A program made the translations under genes and the position numbers. A stretch of DNA of 27,026 bases, from the UHGV virus genome UHGV-0327176; one strand, written 5' to 3'. Shown one piece after another: positions 1,075-23,940 of the stretch. The stretch comes from a virus. Positions within the stretch are counted from its first letter, which is position 1; every line of letters begins with the position of its first letter. The notes under the pieces were generated by a model, which saw only the letters and a list, made by a program, of their open reading frames with translations, had not been told where the DNA came from and made no database searches.

Positions 1075-1717
1075 TGGCAGCAAATACCGAAATATTTGGG
1101 TAGTTGGCGATCTGCACGGATGCTACACGAACCTGATGAAAAAACTGGAGACGATAGGATTCGACACCAAAAAAGACCTGCTTATCTCGGTTGGCGATTT
1201 GGTCGATCGCGGTACAGAGAACGTTGAATGCCTGGAATTAATCACATTCCCCTGGTTCAGAGCTGTACGTGGAAACCATGAGCAAATGATGATTGATGGC
1301 TTATCAGAGCGTGGAAACGTCAATCACTGGCTGCTTAATGGCGGTGGCTGGTTCTTTAATCTCGACTACGACAAAGAAATTCTGGCTAAAGCTCTTGCCC
1401 ATAAAGCAGATGAACTTCCGTTAATCATCGAACTGGTGAGCAAAGATAAAAAATATGTCATCTGCCACGCCGATTATCCTTGTGACGAATACGAATTTGG
1501 AAAGCCAGTTGATCATCAGCAGGTAATCTGGAACCGCGAACGAATCAGCAACTCACAAGACGGGATCGTGAAAGAAATTAAAGGCGCGGACACGTTCATC
1601 TTTGGTCATACGCCAGCAGTGAAACCACTCAAGTTTGCCAACCAGATGTATATAGATACCGGCGCAGTGTTCTGCGGAAACCTCACATTGATTCAGGTAC
1701 AGGGAGAAGGCGCATGA
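1052..1717 (+). CDS. ninI: NinI Ser/Thr protein phosphatase (lambda PPase type)
   Basis: Metallophosphatase motifs GDLHG, GDLVDRG and GNHE are present. The sequence from [23 protein letters not shown] matches lambda phosphatase (221 aa). I chose the ATG at 1052; the ORF track starts at a GTG at 1043. Confidence 0.9.
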
Positions 1718-2337
1718 GACTCGAAAGCGTAGCTAAATTTCATTCGCCAAAAAGCCCGATGATGAGCGACTCACCACGGGCTACGGCTTCTGACTCTCTT
1801 TCCGGTACTGATGTGATGGCTGCTATGGGGATGGCGCAATCACAAGCCGGATTCGGAATGGCTGCATTCTGTGGTAAGCACGAACTCAGCCAGAACGACA
1901 AACAAAAGGCTATCAACTATCTGATGCAATTTGCACACAAGGTATCGGGGAAATACCGTGGTGTGGCAAAGCTCGAAGGAAATACTAAGGCAAAGGTACT
2001 GCAAGTGCTCGCAACATTCGCTTATGCGGATTATTGCCGTAGTGCCGCGACGCCGGGCGCAAGATGCAGAGATTGCCACGGTACAGGTCGGGCGGTTGAT
2101 ATAGCAAAAACAGAGCAGTGGGGGAGAGTTGTTGAGAAAGAGTGCGGAAGATGTAAAGGCGTCGGTTATTCAAGGATGCCTGCAAGCGCAGCATATCGCG
2201 CTGTGACGATGCTAATCCCAAATCTTACCCAACCCACCTGGTCACGCACTGTTAAGCCGCTGTATGACGCTCTGGTGGTGCAATGCCACAAAGAAGAGTC
2301 AATCGCAGACAACATTTTGAATGCGGTCACACGTTAG
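1714..2337 (+). CDS. Q: Late-gene antiterminator Q
   Basis: 207 aa [34 protein letters not shown]..., recalled as essentially lambda Q, including the zinc-binding CRDCHGTGR...CGRCKG region. Followed by a pR'-like promoter. Confidence 0.95.
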
Positions 2338-2379
2338 CAGCATGATTGCCACGGATGGCAACATATTAACGGCATGATA

Positions 2380-2408
2380 TTGACTTTTTGAATAAAGTTG
2401 GGTAAATT
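2380..2408 (+). promoter_or_regulatory. Late promoter pR' (-35 TTGACT, 17-bp spacer, -10 TAAATT) with adjacent qut region
   Basis: TTGACT at 2380-2385 and TAAATT at 2403-2408, immediately downstream of Q. The flanking sequence agrees with my memory of lambda pR'. Confidence 0.6.
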
Positions 2409-2548
2409 TGATCCAACGATGGGTTAATTCGCTCGTTGTGGTAGTGAGATGAAAAGAGGCGGCTCTTACTACCGATTCCGCCTAGTTGGTCAGTTCGACG
2501 TATCGTCTGGAACTCCAACCATCGCAGGCTGAGAGGTCTGCAAAATGC

Positions 2549-2609
2549 AATCCCGAAACAGTTCGCAGGTAATAGTTAGAGCCTGCACAACGGTTTCGGG
2601 ATTTTTTAT
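2549..2609 (+). terminator. tR'-like intrinsic terminator (end of the short pR' leader / 6S RNA)
   Basis: Inverted repeat aatcccgaaac (2549-2559) and gtttcgggatt (2593-2603) followed by a T-run to about 2607. Position relative to pR' is as in lambda. Confidence 0.5.
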
Positions 2610-2611
2610 TT

Positions 2612-2686
2612 GGGTCAGTCGTATAAAGGTAATTACGGAAGGCTGTTAACCTTCTTATCGTGGTTCGAGTCCACGCTGTCCCGCCA
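2612..2686 (+). tRNA. tRNA, predicted anticodon GTT (Asn)
   Basis: Hand-folded cloverleaf: acceptor gggtcag/ctgtccc (6 of 7 bp), perfect anticodon stem gaagg/ccttc, loop ctgttaa with U33 and anticodon GTT, perfect T-stem cgtgg/ccacg, T-loop ttcgagt, encoded 3' CCA. The D-stem is weak (3 bp). Confidence 0.7.
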
Positions 2687-2691
2687 AACAT

Positions 2692-2767
2692 GCTGGTTTA
2701 GCTCCAATGGTAGAGCAGTCGCCTTGTAAGCGAATGGGTAGCGGTTCAAGTCCGTTAACCAGCACCA
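2692..2767 (+). tRNA. tRNA, predicted anticodon TGT (Thr)
   Basis: Hand-folded cloverleaf: perfect 7-bp acceptor gctggtt/aaccagc, D-stem gctc/gagc, D-loop with GG, anticodon loop cttgtaa (anticodon TGT), T-stem agcgg/ccgtt, T-loop ttcaagt, discriminator A, encoded CCA. Confidence 0.8.
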
Positions 2768-2854
2768 TAACTGAGCCGTAGCCACTGGCTATCCTGGATT
2801 CATCAGTGATAGTTACGCTGCGGCCTTCTACACATGATCTTCGTGAAAGCGGGT

Positions 2855-2889
2855 GGCAGGAGGTCGCGCTAACAACCTCCTGCCGTTTT
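2855..2889 (+). terminator. Candidate intrinsic terminator downstream of the tRNAs
   Basis: Perfect 10-bp stem ggcaggaggt (2855-2864) / acctcctgcc (2875-2884) with a 10-nt loop, followed by gtttt. Confidence 0.4.
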
Positions 2890-3009
2890 GCCCGTGCATA
2901 TCGGTCACGAACAAATCTGATTGCTAAACACAGTAGCCTGGATTTGTTCTATCAGTAATCGACCTTATTCCTAATTAAATAGAGCAAATCCCCTTATTGG
3001 GGCTAAGAC

Positions 3010-3333
3010 ATGAAGATGCCAGAAAAACATGACCTGTTAGCCGCCATTCTCGCGGCAAAGGAACAAGGCATCGGGGCAATCCTTGCGTTTGCAATGGCGT
3101 ACCTTCGCGGCAGATATAATGGCGGTGCGTTTACAAAAACAGTAATCGACGCAACGATGTGCGCCATTATCGCCTGGTTCATTCGTGACCTTCTCGACTT
3201 CGCCGGACTAAGTAGCAATCTCGCTTATATAACGAGCGTGTTCATCGGCTACATCGGTACTGACTCGATTGGTTCGCTTATCAAACGCTTCGCTGCTAAA
3301 AAAGCCGGAGTAGAAGATGGTGGAAATCAATAA
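3010..3333 (+). CDS. S: Holin S (class I, dual-start S107/S105)
   Basis: 107 aa ORF beginning MKMPEKHD (Met1-Lys2-Met3 dual start), with three hydrophobic segments. Recalled as near-identical to lambda S. The upstream sequence ...caaatccccttattgggg... also matches lambda. Confidence 0.95.
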
Positions 3334-3793
3334 TCAACGTAAGGCGTTCCTCGATATGCTGGCGTGGTCAGAGGGAACTGATAACGGACGTCAGAAAACC
3401 AGAAATCATGGTTATGACGTCATTGTAGGAGGAGAGCTATTCACTGATTACTCCGATCACCCTCGCAAACTTGTCGCGCTAAACCCCAAACTCAAATCAA
3501 CAGCCGCCGGACGTTACCAGCTTCTTTCACGTTGGTGGGATGCCTACCGTAAGCAGCTTGGCCTGAAAGACTTCTCCCCCAAAAGCCAGGACGCTGTGGC
3601 ACTGCAACAGATTAAAGAGCGTGGCGCTTTACCAATGATTGATCGCGGTGATATTCGTCAGGCAATTGACCGTTGCAGCAATATCTGGGCTTCACTTCCG
3701 GGCGCTGGTTATGGTCAGTTCGAGCATAAGGCTGACAGCCTGATTGCAAAATTCAAAGAGGCTGGCGGAACGGTCAGAGAGATTGAGGTATGA
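3317..3793 (+). CDS. R: Endolysin R (lytic transglycosylase)
   Basis: 158 aa [42 protein letters not shown]..., recalled as lambda R. It overlaps the end of S as in lambda. Confidence 0.95.
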
Positions 3794-4227
3794 GCAGAGT
3801 AACCGCGATTATCTCCGCTCTGGTTATTTGCATCATCGTCTGCCTGTCATGGGCTGTTAATCATTACCGTGATAACGCCATCGCCTATAAAGAACAGCGC
3901 GATAAAGCCACGTCCATCATCGCTGACATGCAGAAGCGTCAACATGATGTAGCAGAACTCGACGCCAGATACACAAAGGAGCTTGCTGATGCTAACGCGA
4001 CTATCGAAAGTCTTCGTGCTGATGTTTCTGCTGGTCGTAAGCGCCTGCAAGTCGCCGCCACCTGTGCAAAGTCAACGACCGGAGCCAGCAGCATGGGCGA
4101 TGGAGAAAGCCCAGGACTTACAGCAGATGCTGAACTCAATTATTACCGTCTCCGAAGTGGAATCGACAGGATAACCGCGCAGGTTAACTACCTGCAGGAG
4201 TACATCAGGACTCAGTGCCTGAAATAA
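3790..4227 (+). CDS. Rz: Spanin inner-membrane subunit Rz (i-spanin)
   Basis: 145 aa ORF with an N-terminal transmembrane segment ([17 protein letters not shown]) and a coiled-coil periplasmic region. Lambda-Rz-like N-terminus, directly downstream of R. Confidence 0.85.
3983..4174 (+). CDS. Rz1: Spanin outer-membrane lipoprotein Rz1 (o-spanin), embedded in Rz in the +1 frame
   Basis: 63 aa ORF wholly inside Rz in another frame, with a signal peptide and lipobox-like LVVSAC followed by a proline-rich segment ([12 protein letters not shown]). This is the classic embedded Rz/Rz1 arrangement. Confidence 0.7.
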
Positions 4228-4259
4228 TTTTTTTGCAAATCACAAAGTCCATTTAATGA

Positions 4260-4284
4260 GCCTCGCGAAAAGCGGGGCTTTTTT
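4260..4284 (+). terminator. Intrinsic terminator after the lysis cassette
   Basis: Stem gcctcgc / gcggggc (7 bp including one G-U pair), loop gaaaa, then TTTTTT at 4279-4284. Confidence 0.55.
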
Positions 4285-4435
4285 ATGTCCTCAGTAAACC
4301 GCGCATTCTCGTGCGCATATCAACCAAGAGCTTTTCGGGATATGAGACAGAGACAGGACGGTGGCTTACATCGTGCCGCTCTTGGGCTGTCCATGTCTGC
4401 GAGAACTGGCTCATATCACCAAAAAGGTAAATACG

Positions 4436-5164
4436 ATGTCCAATATCATCCCGATTGATTTCGAAGGCCATCCCATGCGTTTTTCTGACGATGGCTGGTT
4501 TGACGCGACTGCGGCAGCTGACAAGTTCAACAAGGAGCCGGCTCAGTGGCTTAGGCTTCCTGAGACTGTCCGTTACATCGAGGCGTTAAAGAGTAGATAT
4601 GGGAATATCACATATGTAAAAACCAGCCGCGCTCGCAAAGACCGTGGCGGCGGAACATGGCTTCACCCAAAACTGGCGGTCAGATTTGCTCGATGGCTTT
4701 CTGTAGATTTTGAGATCTGGTGTGATGAGCAAATTGACGCAATCATTCAGGGTTCCGTTCATCATATCGACGATGAAAGAATAAAGGCTATTTTCCTTCT
4801 GGATAAATCTCAGCCATGGGAAAAGAGGTTTAGCGATCCGTTTTATTCTGCGATGTTCAAAATGTCAGGGCTGCCCCGTCATCGACCAGGTCGTCGCCCC
4901 GCACTATTTGGGATGATCAGTGCCAAGTGGGTATATGGCCAGGTATTACCACCAGAAGTATATGCAGAGGTTAAAAGACGGCTGGCTGCGGGAGACAAAA
5001 TCCATCAGCACCTTAAACCTGACGCGCTGACATTGGTTGAGCGACAGATCATTGCCGTTACCAGCATTGCCAATGGGTGCTCTGATTATCGTGATTTCGA
5101 AGCGCGTTGCATGTCGGCATTCCCGGTGAAAGGGCAGATGAAATTGCTCTATGCGGCGGCCTGA
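4436..5164 (+). CDS. KilA-N domain protein with a C-terminal domain I recall as P63C-like (accessory gene)
   Basis: The N-terminal region MSNIIPIDFEGHPMRFSDDGWFDATAAADKFNKEPAQWLRLPE...HPKLAVRFARWLSVDFEIWCDEQIDAI resembles KilA-N (APSES-type DNA-binding) domains. Start chosen at the ATG at 4436 with AAAGG 8 nt upstream; the ORF track extends to a GTG at 4361. Confidence 0.65.
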   Translation: MSNIIPIDFEGHPMRFSDDGWFDATAAADKFNKEPAQWLRLPETVRYIEALKSRYGNITYVKTSRARKDRGGGTWLHPKLAVRFARWLSVDFEIWCDEQIDAIIQGSVHHIDDERIKAIFLLDKSQPWEKRFSDPFYSAMFKMSGLPRHRPGRRPALFGMISAKWVYGQVLPPEVYAEVKRRLAAGDKIHQHLKPDALTLVERQIIAVTSIANGCSDYRDFEARCMSAFPVKGQMKLLYAAA

Positions 5165-5166
5165 TC

Positions 5167-5424
5167 ATGAGCACCCGAATAATAGAATGCGCCTCCAGAG
5201 CGGGGCGCGACTTCTCAGAGTTCATGAAAGGCGAGAAGGGCATGATGGAAGCATTGGCCTCGGTGGATGAGTTTGGCGAGCAGCTGCGCCTCAACGGCTG
5301 TGTCAATCATCACTTTGTTAGCTACATGATGCGGAACTCGATCATGCAGGCATTCATGGACATGGCAAAAGCCGAGAGGAAAGAAGAGCGCCGGCGTAAG
5401 CGAGCGGAAGCAAAAGCGAAGTAG
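5167..5424 (+). CDS. Hypothetical small protein with a basic C-terminal tail, coupled to the KilA-N gene
   Basis: ATG at 5167 lies 2 nt after the KilA-N stop (TGATCATG). 85 aa ending in the lysine/arginine-rich KAERKEERRRKRAEAKAK. No homolog recalled. Confidence 0.45.
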   Translation: MSTRIIECASRAGRDFSEFMKGEKGMMEALASVDEFGEQLRLNGCVNHHFVSYMMRNSIMQAFMDMAKAERKEERRRKRAEAKAK

Positions 5425-5778
5425 CCATTACAAAGCCCATCTACTGGTGGGCTTGATAATGAAACCGTGATTTACATCCCTCACAATCCAGGTATGTAAA
5501 AGCTGGATCATGCGAGAACGGATTTAACTAAATCTGTGCGCCACCAGTTAACGGCAGTACCACGAAACAACCCAAGCCAGTAAGTGGGGAAATAACACTG
5601 GCAGCCACTGAAAGATGAACCTCCAGCCTTATGGCAAAAAAGATTCTTTGTGGTGGCGGACTGATGGAAAGACATCGGTTATTGCAGAGGCCATTCAATG
5701 AGTGGTCTCGACAATGGCTTATACCCTACACGGGATAACTTAACTGATATCCCTTTTAACGGATAAACGGAGCCAACA

Positions 5779-6276
5779 ATGGCAAAGCTCGCAGACAAAC
5801 AAGAGCTGTTTGCCCATCCGGATGATGTGTATGTCGGAGAGTGTGTGATTTATACCGGCTACATAAATAAGCGAGGGTATGGGCAGAAGCACATTTCACG
5901 AAAGCCGCACTACGCACATCGAATCGCATACTGCGAAGCTAACGGAATTTCGCTAGATAGCATCAAGGACCTGGTTGTTAGGCATAAATGCGATAATCCA
6001 TCATGCGTGAATCCTGACCATCTGATTATAGGTACTGTCGCTGACAATAATCGGGACAGGTCAAGGCGAGGCAGAAACTCATACCCTGACCGTTCAGGTG
6101 AAAAGAACGGAATGGCGAAATTAAAAGAGTGCGATGTCATCTGCATTCGCCGCGAGTATGTGCGCGGGAGTGTAGGTAATGGGCTTAGGTCTTTAGCAAA
6201 GAGATATGGCGTATCCACTACCATGATTGCTGACATCGTTAATCATAGAAATTGGAGCAATGTTTCGGAGGTGTGA
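5779..6276 (+). CDS. HNH endonuclease (terminase-associated)
   Basis: 165 aa ORF with the HNH-type motif HKCDNPSCVNPDHLIIGTVADN and a C-terminal helix-turn-helix-like segment (LAKRYGVSTTMIADIVNHRNW). GGAG ribosome-binding site upstream. Lies immediately before the small terminase. Confidence 0.8.
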   Translation: MAKLADKQELFAHPDDVYVGECVIYTGYINKRGYGQKHISRKPHYAHRIAYCEANGISLDSIKDLVVRHKCDNPSCVNPDHLIIGTVADNNRDRSRRGRNSYPDRSGEKNGMAKLKECDVICIRREYVRGSVGNGLRSLAKRYGVSTTMIADIVNHRNWSNVSEV

Positions 6277-6277
6277 T

Positions 6278-6847
6278 TTGAAACAGCTCACACCTAAGCA
6301 GGAACTGTTCTGCAGGGAATATTTAAAAGATTTAAACGCCACACAGGCAGCTATCAGGGCGGGTTACAGCGAGAAGACTGCCAATGAACAAGCATCACGC
6401 CTGTTAGCAAATGTTAATGTCCAAAACTTTGTCGCCGAACTTAAGGCAGCCCGCATTGAGCAGACTGGTATCGATGCCGCCTATGTTCTGCGACGCTTGG
6501 TTGAGATAGACCAAATGGACGTGCTCGACATCATGACTGATGACATGAGTCTGAAGCCTGTCTCTGAGTGGCCTGCATCATGGCGGCGCTACCTCAGTGG
6601 ATTTGATCTTGCGGAAATGTTCGAAGGACGCGGCGATGACCGAGAGATGGTTGGCATCCTGAAGAAGATTAAATGGCCTGATAAGGTTAAAAACCTTGAG
6701 TTGCTTGGGCGCCATGTTTCTGTTCAGGCGTTTAAAGACAACGTCAAAAATGAAGTGACTGGTGCTGACGGAGGACCAGTCAGAACAGAAATTACCAACT
6801 TAACGCCGGAGCAGGCTGCAGAAGCGTATAAAAAAATGATGGGCTAA
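6278..6847 (+). CDS. Terminase small subunit (P27-family type)
   Basis: The N-terminal motif [34 protein letters not shown] is typical of this small-terminase family as I recall it. I propose the TTG at 6278 (GGAGG 6 nt upstream, 1 nt after the HNH stop); alternative in-frame starts are the ATG at 6260 or 6227. Confidence 0.75.
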
Positions 6848-17563: not shown

Positions 17564-17751
17564 CCTTCAATAGCCTGCCGGGCGGTGAAGATTTTATTCT
17601 TCGTCCGGCGCTTGCCTTCCATATTGACCAGAAAGACCTTAACAGCGGTGCGGTAGATCTTTGCCGCATCGCGCTTCTCAATGACTACCTCGACATGCGC
17701 GAGGATAACGACGCCCGGGTAGATAAATGGAGAGCGGCCAATGAGCGGTAA
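17138..17751 (+). CDS. Tail assembly chaperone, predicted -1 frameshift fusion (GT-like product)
   Basis: Slippery heptamer A_AAT_TTT at 17509-17515 in the zero frame (codons gga|aat|ttt, followed by a TTTTTT run). The -1 frame is open for 78 codons (17515-17748) and stops at TAA 17749-17751, overlapping the tape measure ATG at 17741. Hand-translated with no internal stops. Confidence 0.55.
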
Positions 17752-19753
17752 CGCAGATACGATTAAAGATTTCCTTGTTTCGCTGGGATTCGATATCGAT
17801 CAGGCTGGCGCTAATAAGTTTGAAGCCGTGCTGAAAGGTGTTACCGCGAACGTTCTGAAGGTCGGCGCGGTGGTGGAAGGCGCAGCGCTGAGCATTGTCG
17901 GATTTACCACCCAGATCGCGAATGGTCTGGATAAAATTTACTGGGCATCCCAGCGGACGGGGGCCAGCGTCCAGGGCATCAAAGCGCTGGGCTATGCCGC
18001 ATCGCAAACCGGTGCCAGCGCCGAGTCGGCTATGTCCTCCCTCGAAGGGCTGGCGGGGTTCATGCGTAGCAATCCGGGGGCGGAAGGCTTCCTGAACCGC
18101 CTGGGTGTCCAGACCCGTGATGCCAGCGGAAAGATGCGTGATACTGCGGCCATCTTTACTGGCGTTGGGCAAAAGCTCAACAACATGCCGTATTACCGCG
18201 CGAAGCAATACGCGCAGATGCTTGGCATCGATGAAAACACGCTGATGGCGATGCGGCGCGGCATGAATGGCTTTACCGCCGATTACCAGTCGATGCTGCA
18301 AAAGACAAGGTTCAACGCTGATAAAGCGGCTGTTCAGTCCAACAAATTCATGACGTCCATGCGCGGGCTTACGTCGCTGTTCGGCATCATGCGGGACAAG
18401 ATCGGCTCAAACCTCGCTGGTGGCCTGGCTGGTTCGCTGGACAGCCTGCGGCGGCGCATCCTCGACAATTTCCCGAAGATTGAAGAGACGCTTACCAGAG
18501 TTATTAACGGCGTGATCTGGCTTGCGAACGCATTCACGAGAATGGCGTGGCGGCTGATACAGGGCGCTGGCTCTGTCATCGACTGGTGGAAGCGTCTTGA
18601 CGATGGCAGTAAAAATCTGCTGAAAATATTCGGTGCTCTACTTGTCGCATGGCGTCTGCTTAATTCTGCGTTCCTGAAATCCCCGATTGGAATTATCACC
18701 ACGCTGATTCTGGCGATCGGATTACTCTATGACGATTACCAGACGTGGAAAGAGGGCGGAAAAAGCCTGATTGACTGGAGCAAGTGGGAACCAGCAATAG
18801 AAAAGGCGAAAAAGGCAATTATCTGGCTGCGAGATAAGCTGTTGGAGCTAAAAGATTCTGTCGGTGGGTGGCAGAACTCACTGGAAATTTTGGCTACCTT
18901 CATTGCAGGGGTATGGTTAAGCAAAATAACCTCTGCATTTGCTAAGTTAGCCGGAATACCTATGCCGCCATGGCTGAAGCTGTGGGCTATTTATGCCGGG
19001 TATCTGGTGGACGACAGGCATAATATTAAAGAAAGCGCTAAATCATCATGGGACTACACCAAAGGAAACATCGGAGATGCGCTCCGCTGGATGGGGTTTA
19101 ATACCGATTTTGGCCGCAATCCCAATACCGTGTATGGCGCGAATATTCAGTCAGATATTCCAGGCGCTGAACCGGAGCAATACGCCCAGTCAGTGAAGCG
19201 CCCACAAGCCACAGCCCAGGGTAAGGTATTGCTCGACTGGATGGGGCCAATGTTCAATAAACTGGAGTCGCTTTATCAGCTGCCAGCTGGCCTGTTGAAA
19301 AGCGTGGCGATCACCGAGTCGGGTGGTAACCAGTTCGCCATATCCGGCGCAGGCGCGAAAGGACTGTTTCAGTTTATGGATGGCACGGCGCGCGACATGG
19401 GCCTGCGTGGGAATGATGTATTCGACCCGGAAAAGTCAGCTCAGGCAGCCGCTAAGTACCTCAGCCAGCTGTTGCGGCAGAACGGCGGAGACCTTAGCAA
19501 AGCACTGGCATCATATAACTGGGGGATCGGGAATGTTAAGCGTTATGGAATGGGGCTAATGCCGCAGGAAACGCGCAATTACATTCCGAAAGTAATGAGC
19601 AATATGCCCACCAGCGCCCCGGTGATTCAGCAGGAAACGAACATTAACATCCACGGCGTTTCCGATCCTCGCGAAGCTGCCCGTTTGACTGTTGACCGTC
19701 AAAAGGGCGTGAATTCACAGTTAACCCAGCAACTCCCCGCAGGACCGAGATAA
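17741..19753 (+). CDS. Tape measure protein with a C-terminal lytic transglycosylase (SLT) motif
   Basis: 670 aa ORF after the chaperone, with hydrophobic segments in the middle (IFGALLVAWRLL, IITTLILAIGLLY). The segment ITESGGNQFAISGAGAKGLFQFMDGTARDMGL matches the catalytic-Glu-Ser lytic transglycosylase motif. Confidence 0.75.
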   Translation: MSGNADTIKDFLVSLGFDIDQAGANKFEAVLKGVTANVLKVGAVVEGAALSIVGFTTQIANGLDKIYWASQRTGASVQGIKALGYAASQTGASAESAMSSLEGLAGFMRSNPGAEGFLNRLGVQTRDASGKMRDTAAIFTGVGQKLNNMPYYRAKQYAQMLGIDENTLMAMRRGMNGFTADYQSMLQKTRFNADKAAVQSNKFMTSMRGLTSLFGIMRDKIGSNLAGGLAGSLDSLRRRILDNFPKIEETLTRVINGVIWLANAFTRMAWRLIQGAGSVIDWWKRLDDGSKNLLKIFGALLVAWRLLNSAFLKSPIGIITTLILAIGLLYDDYQTWKEGGKSLIDWSKWEPAIEKAKKAIIWLRDKLLELKDSVGGWQNSLEILATFIAGVWLSKITSAFAKLAGIPMPPWLKLWAIYAGYLVDDRHNIKESAKSSWDYTKGNIGDALRWMGFNTDFGRNPNTVYGANIQSDIPGAEPEQYAQSVKRPQATAQGKVLLDWMGPMFNKLESLYQLPAGLLKSVAITESGGNQFAISGAGAKGLFQFMDGTARDMGLRGNDVFDPEKSAQAAAKYLSQLLRQNGGDLSKALASYNWGIGNVKRYGMGLMPQETRNYIPKVMSNMPTSAPVIQQETNINIHGVSDPREAARLTVDRQKGVNSQLTQQLPAGPR

Positions 19754-20664: not shown

Positions 20665-21729
20665 ATGTCTCTTAACTGGATGCGCCATTTTGAGCTGCAA
20701 CTGTTGGACCAGAACGGGCAGGGCGTTTCCCTGTCTGACTTTAAGGTCACGTTCCAGATCGAGTGGGCAGACACACGCTGGCCGCGCGTGGCGAACGTGA
20801 AAATTTACAACCTTTCGACCGATACCACGAACAAGATACTGGGGCAGGAGTTTGCCAAAATTCGCATCATTGCCGGGTATGACGGTATAGCGCCGGATGT
20901 TGATGCGAGCCAGGTCGGCGTCGCCCGAGAGATTTCACCAGACCAGATAGGGCAGGTGAACGGTCAGAACTACGGCCTGATTTTTGACGGTGATATTCGC
21001 TTTACCGTAACCGGGAAGGACAACATTACCGATTCCTGGGTGTTGATTCAGGCTATTGGAGATCATGAAGCGTTCCTCTACGCGACTACCATCACTACGC
21101 TTGCCGCTGGCTATACCGTTGCGGATCTGCACCGGGCGACGATGCAGGATTTCAACGTGTTCGGCGTGACACAGGGCATTACCGGCGATTTTCCTGATAC
21201 CGTGTTTCCTCGTGGCCGCGCGATTTACTCATCCACTCGTAACGTGATGGATAATATTGCAGCGCAGTGCAAAGCGACATGGCAGCTGGTGGATGGTCAG
21301 GTCCAGATGGTGCCGGAGGATAAATATATTCACGAAGCCATTGTGTTGAATGCCAATACTGGCCTGATTGGTATGCCGCAACAGACGATGGGCGGCGGCG
21401 TAAACGTGCGGTGCCTGATAAACCCAAACATCCGCATTAATGGTCTTATCCAGCTCGATCAGGCTTCGGTGTACCGCGCGTCGCTCGGTAATAGCGAAAT
21501 CGCACAGTCGCCCGGGCGTATCACCGAAACTGAAGAGAATGGCAACCGTGTGCTGACCGGTACGACGTCACAGGCTGCCAGCATTGCGACGGATGGCGTT
21601 TATATCGTCAAAGCTATCGACTATACTGGCGACACCAGAGGTCAGGCGTGGTACATGGATTTGATGTGCTTTGCGCGTGGCAGTCGTGAATTATATAGTC
21701 AGTCGACGCTCCAAAAAGTACAGGTGTGA
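20665..21729 (+). CDS. Putative baseplate hub protein (P2 gpD / Mu P-like position)
   Basis: 354 aa ORF upstream of the spike-like gene in a P2/Mu-like baseplate gene order. Family inferred from order and size only. Confidence 0.5.
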   Translation: MSLNWMRHFELQLLDQNGQGVSLSDFKVTFQIEWADTRWPRVANVKIYNLSTDTTNKILGQEFAKIRIIAGYDGIAPDVDASQVGVAREISPDQIGQVNGQNYGLIFDGDIRFTVTGKDNITDSWVLIQAIGDHEAFLYATTITTLAAGYTVADLHRATMQDFNVFGVTQGITGDFPDTVFPRGRAIYSSTRNVMDNIAAQCKATWQLVDGQVQMVPEDKYIHEAIVLNANTGLIGMPQQTMGGGVNVRCLINPNIRINGLIQLDQASVYRASLGNSEIAQSPGRITETEENGNRVLTGTTSQAASIATDGVYIVKAIDYTGDTRGQAWYMDLMCFARGSRELYSQSTLQKVQV

Positions 21730-21730
21730 T

Positions 21731-22081
21731 ATGACAAAAATTAGGAATGTTATCTGCGGAGCCGTTCTTTCGTTGGTCGGAGCTTCAACTGCAATGGCTG
21801 ATACCCAATGCGGGCCATATCGCCTCACCGCAGGTAATGATGGTTTTATGCATATTAATGGTGTAAAGCCAGAAAACCAGAAAATGACCTTTCTGAAAGC
21901 CAAGGAAGATTATCAAAATCTCAAGATGGAATGGACGGTTGCAACTAATCAACCCGGCCGCTGGGTTGGGCTTGAGTACATCAAGCGCAACGGCAAAGCC
22001 ATTCTCAACGCACAGTGGCTGCAAGCCAGCATGGATTCGCCGCGTCAGTATGCAACATACGACTGCCGAAAAGTAAAATAG
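21731..22081 (+). CDS. Moron: secreted (periplasmic) protein with a Sec signal peptide, unknown function
   Basis: ATG at 21731, 1 nt after the hub stop, with AGGTG upstream. The N-terminus MTKIRNVICGAVLSLVGASTAMA/DTQCG is a typical signal peptide with an AxA cleavage site. Two Cys in the mature part. GC content is lower than the flanking tail genes. Stop TAG at 22079-22081 runs into a GC hairpin. Confidence 0.6.
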   Translation: MTKIRNVICGAVLSLVGASTAMADTQCGPYRLTAGNDGFMHINGVKPENQKMTFLKAKEDYQNLKMEWTVATNQPGRWVGLEYIKRNGKAILNAQWLQASMDSPRQYATYDCRKVK

Positions 22082-22099
22082 CCCGCCAGATAGGCGGGC
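22081..22099. terminator. Shared hairpin between the convergent moron genes (intrinsic terminator for the - strand gene)
   Basis: Perfect 7-bp stem gcccgcc / ggcgggc with loop agata. On the - strand it is followed by TATTTTACTTTT; on the + strand it is preceded by an A-rich run. Confidence 0.55.
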
Positions 22100-22104
22100 A
22101 TGCG

Positions 22105-22395
22105 TCAAAAATATTGAGCTTTAATTATAATAAACACAATAATTACGAACAGGATGTTTCTAATTATTTTTTGCTTATGAGTAAGTTGTTTTTTTTCTGT
22201 CGATTTCCCGGGAGAGTAAAGGTTAGTGGTATGCGACAGCCCCGTGCCGGGAAGGCCATTTGTCATCTTTACGCCTTTTTTTCCGATGTTAATGGTGGAA
22301 CCTTTACCACCAATTGAAGTGCTTACTCCGCTTTTACTAATGTTGATCGCGAGTCCGGGCGCAATCCGGATTCTTTTACGAAATCTAAATCCCAT
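22105..22395 (-). CDS. Moron: small membrane-anchored protein, N-terminal domain recalled as DUF4236-like
   Basis: The only standalone - strand ORF in the window. Strong ribosome-binding site AGGAG 6 nt before the ATG (read on the - strand). The N-terminus MGFRFRKRIRIAPGLAINISKSGVSTSIGGKGSTINIGKKG...GLPGTGLS matches my recollection of the DUF4236 signature. C-terminal hydrophobic helix IIRNILFVIIVFIII. Very AT-rich 3' half. Confidence 0.65.
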   Translation of the reverse strand: MGFRFRKRIRIAPGLAINISKSGVSTSIGGKGSTINIGKKGVKMTNGLPGTGLSHTTNLYSPGKSTEKKQLTHKQKIIRNILFVIIVFIIIKAQYF

Positions 22396-22582
22396 TTGTT
22401 ACTCCTGTAGTCAATAATGCGATGGTGCAGGTCCACTCTATGGCGGCTTCATGGCTGAAATTGATTTTCAATGCTTACTTGTTGCAAACATATCCTAATA
22501 CACCTTGTGAATGTGTGCCATTGCAGCGGAAAAGCCTTACTTCACACTGATGTAGCTTAGTTACTAAGAGATAATTGATACC

Positions 22583-22607
22583 AAACCAGCTTCGGCTGGT
22601 TTTTTTA
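22583..22607 (+). terminator. Intrinsic terminator at the right edge of the moron island
   Basis: Stem accagc / gctggt (22585-22600) with loop ttcg, followed by a T-run of 6-7, about 10 nt upstream of the spike gene ATG. Confidence 0.55.
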
Positions 22608-22617
22608 TGGGGGTTTT

Positions 22618-23358
22618 ATGCCAATTCCAACTCAATCACAGATCGGGGGTGAGCAGCAGACCGCGCAGGCCATTGCCGATTCGGTGTCTACCCAGATGCG
22701 CGTAGCGATGCCCGGCATCATTCAGTCGTTCGATCCTGACACTGTTACCTGCACAGTAGAGGTAGCGCTTCGCGGTATTGTTGGCGATGGCTCCACCGAA
22801 TTAAAACCGCTGGTGGATGTGCCGGTTATCTTCCCGCGCGGCGGCGGTTGCACGCTGACCTTTCCGGTAAAAGAAGGCGACGAGTGCCTGCTGATCTTTG
22901 CCGACCGTTGCATCGATTTCTGGTGGCAGAGCGGCGGCGTTCAGGAGACCGTCGATCCGCGACAGCATGACTTATCTGATGCGTTCGCCATCGTTGGCCC
23001 GCAGTCGCAAGCACAGAAAATCAGCGGTATCAGTACCAGCGCCGCGCAGCTGCGAACCGATGATGGTGCGGCGTTCGTAGAGGTTGCCGCAGGACATAAC
23101 ATCACCGTTCAAACACCGGGCCAGCTCACGGCTACGGCTGAAGGTGGAACGACAATCACATCCCCGACTATCACGCTGAACGGCAACGTAACGATTAATG
23201 GCAATCTGTCTCAGGGAATGGGCGAAAGTGGCGGTACTGCGACGATGCTTGGGCCGGTGACGGTGACTAACGATGTGAAGGCTGGAGGAAAGAGCCTCAT
23301 CCAGCATACCCATGGCGGTGTGCAGAATGGCAGCGGGAATACTACCGCGCCTAATTAA
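22618..23358 (+). CDS. Baseplate spike protein (gpV / Mu gp45-like)
   Basis: 246 aa ORF with a Gly/Thr-rich C-terminal region typical of spike beta-helix proteins, and HTHGG near the C-terminus reminiscent of the His-containing apex motif. Lies upstream of W-, J- and I-like genes. Confidence 0.65.
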   Translation: MPIPTQSQIGGEQQTAQAIADSVSTQMRVAMPGIIQSFDPDTVTCTVEVALRGIVGDGSTELKPLVDVPVIFPRGGGCTLTFPVKEGDECLLIFADRCIDFWWQSGGVQETVDPRQHDLSDAFAIVGPQSQAQKISGISTSAAQLRTDDGAAFVEVAAGHNITVQTPGQLTATAEGGTTITSPTITLNGNVTINGNLSQGMGESGGTATMLGPVTVTNDVKAGGKSLIQHTHGGVQNGSGNTTAPN

Positions 23359-23377
23359 AAACTACCAAACAGACAAA

Positions 23378-23410
23378 AGCCCCGGGTGCGCTAACACTTC
23401 GGGGCTTTTT
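23378..23410 (+). terminator. Candidate intrinsic terminator after the spike gene
   Basis: Stem agccccg (23378-23384) / cggggct (23400-23406) with a 15-nt loop, followed by TTTTT. Confidence 0.45.
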
Positions 23411-23484
23411 ACTTTCTGCACCTTGAGGATAGCAAGGGAGAATATGTGATTAATTTTAGCAAACTGATACGGGAGTTGCGAGTC

Positions 23485-23583
23485 ATGGGCGAAAAACTAC
23501 CCAACTGGAAATTCTTCCTCATCTGGGCCGTGTTCTTTTTATTCGGTCTGTCAAGCGTTATTAGCGCTATACGCTGGTGGTGA
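23485..23583 (+). CDS. Small hydrophobic peptide (32 aa, single predicted transmembrane helix)
   Basis: Not in the ORF track (under 60 aa). ATG at 23485 preceded by GGGAG with a 9-nt spacer. Translates to MGEKLPNWKFFLIWAVFFLFGLSSVISAIRWW then TGA at 23581-23583, 3 nt before the next gene's ATG. Confidence 0.4.
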   Translation: MGEKLPNWKFFLIWAVFFLFGLSSVISAIRWW

Positions 23584-23586
23584 TTT

Positions 23587-23940
23587 ATGCGATACAGACG
23601 TGAAGACACCGACGGTGATTACACTTTCGGGCAGGGTGACGATACTTTCCTTATCGACAGTCCGGAATGTGTCGCCCAGGCAGTAAAAACCCGCTTCGAG
23701 CTGTGGCGCGGTCAGTGGTTTCTCGATCTGACGGAAGGCACGCCGTATGTTCAGTCGGTGCTTGGTAAACAGCGATCTGACGTCTACATCCTGGCTATAC
23801 GTGAACGCATACAGGACACACCGGGCGTTCTGTCGATTCTTTCCTTCGATACCAATTATGACGGCACCAGCCGTCGCGTCACCTTCACTTCCTCCATTGA
23901 CACAATCTACGGCCAGACGACTGTAACAAGCGAGGCATAA
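23587..23940 (+). CDS. Baseplate protein (gpW / gp25-like position)
   Basis: 117 aa ORF immediately upstream of the J-like gene (stop/start TAAATG). Called by size and order. Confidence 0.5.
   Translation: MRYRREDTDGDYTFGQGDDTFLIDSPECVAQAVKTRFELWRGQWFLDLTEGTPYVQSVLGKQRSDVYILAIRERIQDTPGVLSILSFDTNYDGTSRRVTFTSSIDTIYGQTTVTSEA

Follow-up and report, generated by a model that had tools for sequence, protein, structure and literature searches.

Predicted exported proteins of one family fill an accessory slot that separates hub from spike in the baseplate genes of SEN34-like phages

Introduction

Morons of the lom, bor and HK97 gp15 type are promoter-gene-terminator units within late operons, and such a unit classically ends, on its right, in a terminator that interrupts a Q-dependent late operon. 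In phage T4, the tail lysozyme is reported to be inhibited by the Sp protein. The tape measure protein is the binding partner of T4 Imm (bioRxiv 10.64898/2026.03.06.709160), and Llp of phage T5—a small, disulfide-containing periplasmic lipoprotein whose gene adjoins a tail gene—works from the periplasm, where it jams the receptor FhuA (PMC9586334). Here, we describe a gene for a 116-amino-acid (aa) protein, predicted to be exported, that lies between the baseplate hub and baseplate spike genes of the UHGV virus genome UHGV-0327176, a 27,026-nucleotide (nt) stretch of DNA (hereafter, the window). The gene belongs to the PHROG 3443 family and is the standing occupant of an accessory slot in SEN34-like temperate lambdoid myophages of Enterobacterales. 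The nearest named relatives of the window are Citrobacter phage Omnitron and Salmonella phage SEN34, the latter a temperate lambdoid phage with myovirus morphology (PMC5261728).

The locus resembles each of these systems in part. With the superinfection-exclusion proteins Llp of T5 and Cor of T1/phi80-type phages, which act on FhuA, the family shares a small size, targeting to the envelope, a conserved Cys pair and genes in or beside tail genes, and some PHROG 3443 variants are lipoproteins of the outer-membrane type. The window protein itself, however, bears a predicted type I signal peptide, lacks any lipobox, forms a predicted barrel of about 93 residues as opposed to a lipoprotein of about 61, and is encoded next to hub and spike rather than next to a receptor-binding protein gene; searches of Pfam, of solved chains in the PDB and of structures returned no sequence or structural similarity to Llp/Cor. 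Like lambdoid morons, the gene sits between late genes that are adjacent in relatives, has a lower GC content, is followed by a terminator and specifies an envelope product. It differs from them in that the family is fixed in nearly the whole clade instead of being sporadic, that the gene abuts a structural gene without an intergenic promoter, the candidate promoter lying inside the hub coding sequence, and that the slot is now a secondary hotspot for other morons. What it would have in common with T4 Imm and Sp is the proposed logic, in which an envelope-located phage protein stops DNA delivery by a later tail. Yet Imm and Sp reside in the inner membrane, come from a virulent phage, are expressed early and show no sequence relationship to the protein described here, whereas the latter is a predicted soluble periplasmic barrel from the late operon of a temperate phage. 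The exported protein belongs to neither the Llp nor the Imm family.

Results

The gene maps to 21731..22081 on the plus strand (start ATG, 21731; stop TAA, 22081). Its left border is a Mu gp44-like baseplate hub gene (20665..21729, plus strand; phrog_196, E 1e-82), whose TGA stop codon at 21727-21729 ends 1 nt before the start of the exported-protein gene, and downstream follows a gpV-type baseplate spike gene (22618..23358, plus strand; PF18352, E 1e-41, plus a GpV Apex motif). As read from the sequence, a Shine-Dalgarno-like AGGTG (21722-21726, plus strand) falls within the last hub codons, 4 nt 5' of the ATG. We consider this a real gene rather than a chance open reading frame (ORF), given its match to the PHROG 3443 profile (E 4.4e-46; residues 8-116 against profile positions 6-114 of 115), the existence of 79 homologous protein clusters (90% identity), all from Enterobacterales, and the purifying selection on the mature part of the protein reported below. 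A longer version initiating at a TTG at 21671 (136 aa) was dropped, as it overlaps the hub gene and the ATG is used as the start in relatives; an overlapping minus-strand ORF (22108 to 21785; 21785..22108) was likewise rejected. The GC content of the gene is 0.47 (0.49 at third codon positions), as compared to 0.53 (0.63) for the hub and 0.57 (0.62) for the spike gene.

Whether the protein carries a signal peptide was judged by an n-/h-/c-region heuristic considering charge, hydrophobicity and small residues at positions -3 and -1. Codons 1-23 (21731-21799, plus strand) specify an n-region with K3 and R5, a hydrophobic h-region spanning residues 6-20 (Kyte-Doolittle 11-residue maximum 2.5) and, before D24, the A21-M22-A23 motif that obeys the AxA rule for signal peptidase cleavage. 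By this heuristic, the window protein has the features of a Sec type I signal peptide, and its cleavage region (...LVGASTAMA/DTQC) contains no lipobox of the form L-[AS]-[GA]-C. All three features recur in 58/58 distinct N-termini of PHROG 3443 family members. The ratio of nonsynonymous to synonymous substitution rates (dN/dS) is about 1.06 in the signal peptide and 0.21 over the whole mature part; the features of export are hence kept while the sequence that encodes them drifts neutrally, implying that export itself is maintained by selection. Together, these observations support the prediction that the gene encodes a Sec-exported protein.

The mature protein comprises 93 aa (21800-22078, plus strand; about 10.8 kDa; isoelectric point 9.4) and is predicted to fold into an eight-stranded beta-barrel. 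C27 and C112 are invariant in alignments of 26 and 37 sequences and probably form a disulfide. A sequence-only reading of this DNA had anticipated much of the above, namely the 116-aa gene between hub and spike, a Sec signal peptide with AMA/D cleavage and a GC content below that of the neighbours, all of which are borne out. Its count of two Cys residues holds for the mature protein, but the precursor contains a third, C9, inside the signal peptide.

Several deposited records obscure the exported nature of slot proteins by placing the start codon too far downstream, and the present analysis corrects this annotation. In the SEN34 record (L001), the annotated gene (4067-4300) lacks the signal peptide, while the full ORF (3959-4300) begins 2 nt past the hub stop codon. 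The slot gene of Hafnia phage yong1 (L108), of a different family, is annotated at 4122-4532, and the late start likewise hides the signal peptide of its full ORF (4056-4532).

To what extent is the gene a regular part of such tail clusters? In 18/18 genome loci picked by the protein, a hub gene lies upstream and a spike gene downstream where flanking sequence is sufficient. Among 79 IMG/VR loci picked by the family, the hub is directly upstream in 78 and the spike downstream in 75, with no exception to this placement where the flanks suffice; in neither set was the family seen outside the hub-spike slot. When loci were picked solely by hub similarity (69-98% identity) and required to contain a spike, the gap harboured a family member in 70 of 76 cases, and all locus sets together place PHROG 3443 in the slot of 95/102 SEN34-like tail clusters. 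The gene start varies among annotated relatives from 8 nt inside the hub gene to 9 nt past the hub stop codon, and where the gap is shortest (400-430 nt), hub and spike are separated by the family gene alone.

Two records deserve a remark. CACSKA010000001.1 (L022), titled Chryseobacterium sp. 18061, contains an enterobacterial-type SEN34-like tail cluster and may be a mislabelled or contaminated assembly. In the partial genome of Escherichia phage vB_EcoM-683R1 (L003), the hub (2928-3992) is annotated as two ORFs (2928-3566 and 3573-3992), suggesting a frameshift or a sequencing error.

The more distant Rosemountvirus SE13 and Edwardsiella phage ZHS share the same tail gene order, with the hub joined directly to the spike. 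The gene is therefore not needed to build such tails and qualifies as accessory. In the seven clusters without the family, the first position of the slot is taken by an unrelated lipoprotein or secreted protein. Lipoproteins with a common cysteine-rich C-terminal region occupy five slots (L007, 2660-3775; L038 and L094, about 6070-6795; L078, 6068-6796; L090, 6073-6795), a 182-183-aa Sec-secreted protein is found in two others (L096, 6068-6616; L102, 6068-6619), and the slot of phage yong1 (L108, 4056-4532) encodes a homolog of the latter family, which ranges from 158 to 183 aa. Burkholderia phage Magia carries yet another unrelated secreted protein in its slot, on the opposite strand. None of the alternative occupants tested matched Pfam, NCBIfam, PHROGs or PADLOC. 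Judging from this range of occupants, the hub-spike slot appears to select for exported or envelope proteins.

These data also bear on the possibility that the protein is a component of the baseplate or of tail assembly whose hydrophobic N-terminus is not a cleaved signal peptide. Its place inside the baseplate gene block, how closely it abuts the hub gene and how well it is conserved across the clade would all suit such a role. Yet signal-peptide features persist in every distinct N-terminus of the family despite neutral drift of the sequence, lipoboxes mark some variants as lipoproteins, SE13 and ZHS do without the gene in tails that share the architecture, unrelated exported proteins can substitute for it, and no structural (virion) family of Pfam or PHROG was matched. 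We therefore strongly disfavour a structural role and consider it highly improbable. The sequence-only reading had likewise held that the protein is not a baseplate component, and in this it stands; of the two findings that it named as speaking for a structural gene, conservation in all related tail clusters is largely the case, but a match to a known baseplate component is not. What does not hold is its description of the gene as inserted, if a recent or sporadic insertion is meant. Besides the occupancy of the slot in most clusters, both hub-selected and overall, nucleotide homology with relatives spans the entire gene, its stop codon included, and only the segment behind it is swapped. The gene is ancient and almost universal in the SEN34-like clade.

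The nucleotide homology between window and relatives extends through the hub and exported-protein genes, breaks after the stop codon of the latter and returns at about 22595-22600, just 5' of the spike gene, which delimits a variable cargo at 22082-22595. In the window, this cargo is a minus-strand DUF4236 gene (22105..22395; 96 aa; PF14020, E 2e-20), whose product has a C-terminal hydrophobic segment and no match in PADLOC. The exported-protein gene, assigned correctly to the hub-spike gap in the sequence-only reading, is thus not alone in it. With a GC content of 0.39 and with other genes in its place in close relatives, the DUF4236 gene, and not the exported-protein gene, is the real recent insertion. 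A GC-rich hairpin directly past the exported-protein stop codon (GCCCGCC-AGATA-GGCGGGC; 22081..22099, minus strand) is followed by a T-run on the minus strand and by none on the plus strand, which makes it the terminator of the DUF4236 gene. The same gene recurs in some relatives (L004, L005, L033, L043 and others). In an Escherichia coli prophage (L006, 3065-3885), the cargo position holds a Phd/YefM-Doc toxin-antitoxin pair, flanked by genes whose products share 94-97% identity with their window counterparts.

The right border of the slot is formed by an intrinsic terminator (22583..22609, plus strand), consisting of AAACCAGC-TTCG-GCTGGTTT followed by a T-run and ending 9 nt short of the first spike codon. 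Of 81 distinct regions upstream of the spike gene, at least 78 contain this terminator, 16-24 nt ahead of the spike start codon, and its stem shows compensatory changes (CCAGC/GCTGG, CCCGC/GCGGG, GCCGC/GCGGC). In minimal loci, devoid of further cargo, it directly follows the family gene. Upstream, a candidate sigma-70-like promoter (TTTATA-17-TATACT; 21599..21627, plus strand) resides within the hub 3' end, about 100 nt ahead of the exported-protein gene. No other promoter-like site recurs in the hub gene, and this one occurs in 74 of 100 unique hub sequences. Its -10 hexamer takes the final T from a Thr codon that is ACT in 19/19 divergent representatives, as compared to an ACT use of 20% overall, and synonymous-site conservation in the hub peaks at codons 307-323. 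This evidence is suggestive of 21599-21627 being a moron promoter, albeit a candidate one, and is confounded by a conserved protein motif encoded at the same place. Together with the downstream terminator, two further marks of a moron are present, namely flanking late genes that are adjacent in SE13 and ZHS, and a differing base composition.

Could the protein instead be a periplasmic helper of the phage's own lytic cycle, acting in lysis timing or envelope remodelling and made late only, with no part in exclusion? The gene abuts the hub gene in the orientation of the late operon, its promoter is a candidate only, and the phage possesses a Q antiterminator and a lysis cassette. That cassette, however, is complete—holin, putative endolysin and Rz are encoded elsewhere in the window—and the conserved terminator after the slot and the lower GC content fit a separate transcription unit. 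Replacement by unrelated exported proteins, and the allele shuffling and paralog arrays described below, would be unexpected for a housekeeping lysis function. We regard this explanation as improbable.

Structure prediction, which had been suggested along with the sequence-only reading, yielded a fold but no specific structural relative. AlphaFold2 places eight beta strands after the signal peptide, with a mean predicted local distance difference test (pLDDT) score of 83.6 and values of 88-94 over most of the mature protein. For this barrel, structural similarities stayed at background level, and a search against viral structure models gave nothing significant. Pfam, even at E 0.1, and NCBIfam returned no match for the exported protein. 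A profile search of the PDB produced only a marginal avidin match (E 0.008 over 35 residues), which falls short of assigning the protein to the avidin family, and neither profile, motif nor close structural similarity linked it to the MliC/PliC lysozyme inhibitors. A profile search of 1.84 billion representatives returned only 59 hits for the family; three large multi-repeat proteins among them are spurious hits to WD40 or Flg_new repeats. PHROG 3443 is a phage family of unknown function without a Pfam entry, and a literature search on the slot, the tail type and periplasmic exclusion found no description of the family or of the hub-spike slot.

In fold class, size, signal peptide and periplasmic location, the predicted barrel nevertheless resembles avidin/calycin-like and MliC/PliC/PhiA barrels, as it does in having two conserved Cys near the mature N- and C-termini. 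MliC/PliC and Inh are inhibitors of lysozyme or protease, and calycins bind small ligands in their barrel. The protein might accordingly be a lysogenic-conversion factor that aids the host without any part in phage entry, either an inhibitor of an external hydrolase or a small-ligand-binding barrel, as the weak avidin match and the moron-like setting would allow. We think this unlikely. Beyond the failure of Pfam and structure searches to place the protein, confinement of the family to the hub-spike slot of a single tail type would be odd for a general fitness factor, and both the hypervariability of its N-terminal half and the existence of arrays with as many as seven paralogs speak for a partner that is polymorphic rather than for a fixed enzyme or ligand.

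The mature protein evolves unevenly. Its dN/dS is 0.61 for residues 24-62 and 0.15 for residues 63-116, meaning that the N-terminal half changes about four times faster. Among clusters whose hubs are 96-98% identical to that of the window, identity to the window protein ranges from 58 to 99%, indicating that alleles are shuffled. Domains are shuffled as well. Lipoproteins of about 296 aa encoded in the hub-spike slot of other loci (L016, 3404-4294; L034, L041, L047 and L052, 6069-6959; L085, 6069-6947; and others) carry the barrel at their C-terminal end, where it follows an N-module of about 170-200 residues with lipoboxes such as LLVTGC and LLLSGC. When folded, this N-terminal domain is helical and has no neighbour in the PDB. 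In the protein P0149, the same helical N-module is joined to a different C-terminal domain, which by eye resembles the family found in yong1 and L096. In a further fusion (L042), the lipobox Cys is replaced by Gly (LLSGG).

In two loci, the family has expanded into tandem arrays, comprising seven copies in Serratia aquatilis (L015) and four in Pseudescherichia vulneris (L014), each with its own signal peptide. Leaving aside one L015 copy of a divergent subfamily, the N-terminal halves in that array are mostly 59-72% and the C-terminal halves 83-98% identical. The L015 array (1695-6583) is split by an insertion sequence (IS) transposase gene (4562-5770, minus strand) and includes one truncated copy. 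The L014 array (629-2849) includes a duplicated 3' fragment of the hub gene, suggestive of cassette exchange anchored on the hub 3' end. The divergence and the arrays fit a binder with a polymorphic partner.

One conceivable partner is encoded by the phage itself. The tape measure protein (17741..19753, plus strand) contains a C-terminal, peptidoglycan-cleaving SLT lytic transglycosylase domain at residues 504-604 (PF01464, E 3e-25), also present in relatives, and no structural segment diverges more among them than the C-terminal region of this protein (mean identity 0.57). Given these properties, and paralog arrays reminiscent of orphan immunity arrays, the protein might be a periplasmic inhibitor, or "immunity" protein, of the SLT domain, a narrower version of an entry block. 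Analogues would be T4 Sp acting against the gp5 lysozyme and the periplasmic immunity proteins of type VI peptidoglycan-hydrolase effectors. Comparison of divergence, however, did not single out this partner. Mantel correlations with the exported protein were 0.74 for the hub, 0.67 for the plug, 0.65 for Dit, 0.62 for the spike and 0.56 for the tape measure C-terminus; the latter, below the values of the nearer genes, shows no excess covariation. (The tail fibre gene was too variable for this test, leaving four usable loci.) As the correlation merely falls with physical distance, no partner can be named from it. Since, moreover, structural similarities remain at background level and the unrelated exported replacements would all need the same activity, we deem an SLT inhibitor quite unlikely.

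Beyond the slot, the window represents part of a lambdoid prophage, encoding NinG, a Q antiterminator, holin, Rz and the small terminase subunit, after which the contractile-tail module is placed. Its genes run in the order tape measure, Dit-like protein, baseplate plug, baseplate hub and exported protein, then the minus-strand DUF4236 gene, the gpV-type spike, a 45-codon ORF and the gp25-like and gpJ-like wedge proteins, and finally a DUF2612 protein and the tail fibre genes. The 45-aa ORF (23446..23583, plus strand; phrog_6632, E 3e-21), with the spike gene on one side and the gp25-like gene on the other, has one predicted membrane-spanning stretch and may encode a further accessory protein of the membrane, likewise small; nucleotide homology with relatives is lost a second time over a short segment here, 23347-23587. 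Two tRNA genes (2612..2764, plus strand) are located 3' of the Q antiterminator gene and 5' of the lysis cassette.

Discussion

Taken together, the reading of this protein as exported, accessory and not structural is supported, and an exclusion function, as first proposed from the sequence alone, is plausible. The protein appears to be an envelope-targeted moron product of the tail operon, from an uncharacterised family. As to its role, the reading that we favour, tentatively and as quite possible, is that this moron-like gene, old and fixed in the clade, encodes a binder that acts in the periplasm to keep phages from entering, which would make it a superinfection-exclusion factor. The other exported proteins in the slot, the lipoprotein fusions and the divergent paralog arrays make exclusion or receptor blocking more plausible.

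In such a scenario, the protein would be made late, along with the tail genes, as suggested by the gene abutting the hub gene. Given the Q antiterminator encoded in the window, the terminator that closes the slot should not halt late transcription. The protein may also be made in the lysogen from the weak promoter within the hub 3' end, and the terminator would then prevent lysogen transcripts from running on into the tail genes that follow. Once in the periplasm, the protein could bind a polymorphic partner through its fast-evolving N-terminal half, with the lipoprotein-fused variants being tethered to the outer membrane. Candidates for this partner are the periplasmic face of an outer-membrane receptor and the incoming tail tip, be it the spike or the SLT-bearing tape measure protein. 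Either way, penetration or DNA delivery by related phages would be blocked, resulting in superinfection exclusion, and progeny might be spared wasteful ejection into infected cells and debris.

Several observations weigh against superinfection exclusion or against expression from a promoter of its own. The tight junction with the hub gene suggests late-only expression, which would be unusual for exclusion of the prophage type. A promoter scan of the single sequence found two sites where 2.9 were expected by chance, the candidate promoter overlaps a strongly conserved protein motif (DGVYIV..YTGD), and in its -35 half TAT is kept, yet the synonymous TAC would be closer to consensus. Nucleotide conservation at this site could equally well be explained by its use as a recombination anchor. 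The divergence of the exported protein tracks that of the tape measure SLT region or the spike no more than linkage predicts. Lastly, none of the PADLOC families was matched by the protein at E ≤ 0.01.

A bolder extension of the exclusion role would view the slot as a recombination-driven locus of polymorphic, periplasmic immunity-like binders, assembled from barrels, lipoprotein-barrel fusions, swappable C-terminal domains and arrays. Each of these would recognise a variant tail tip or SLT tape measure of rival phages or tailocins, making the slot a phage counterpart of type VI orphan immunity arrays and its occupants a new entry-blocking family with a hypervariable specificity half. We hold this extension to be unlikely. 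Of all the features described, the way the slot is built, its shuffled domains and its arrays of paralogs most merit further study.

E. coli, Salmonella, Klebsiella, Serratia, Yersinia and their relatives commonly harbour SEN34-like prophages, with more than 500 related stretches in IMG/VR alone. The slot, made up of gene plus terminator, is a predictable hotspot for further cargo, with DUF4236 and a Phd/Doc pair found so far. If the proposed exclusion role is true, PHROG 3443 would constitute a widespread, hitherto unrecognised family of prophage exclusion factors, with a bearing on phage host range, on phage therapy and on the competition between prophages.

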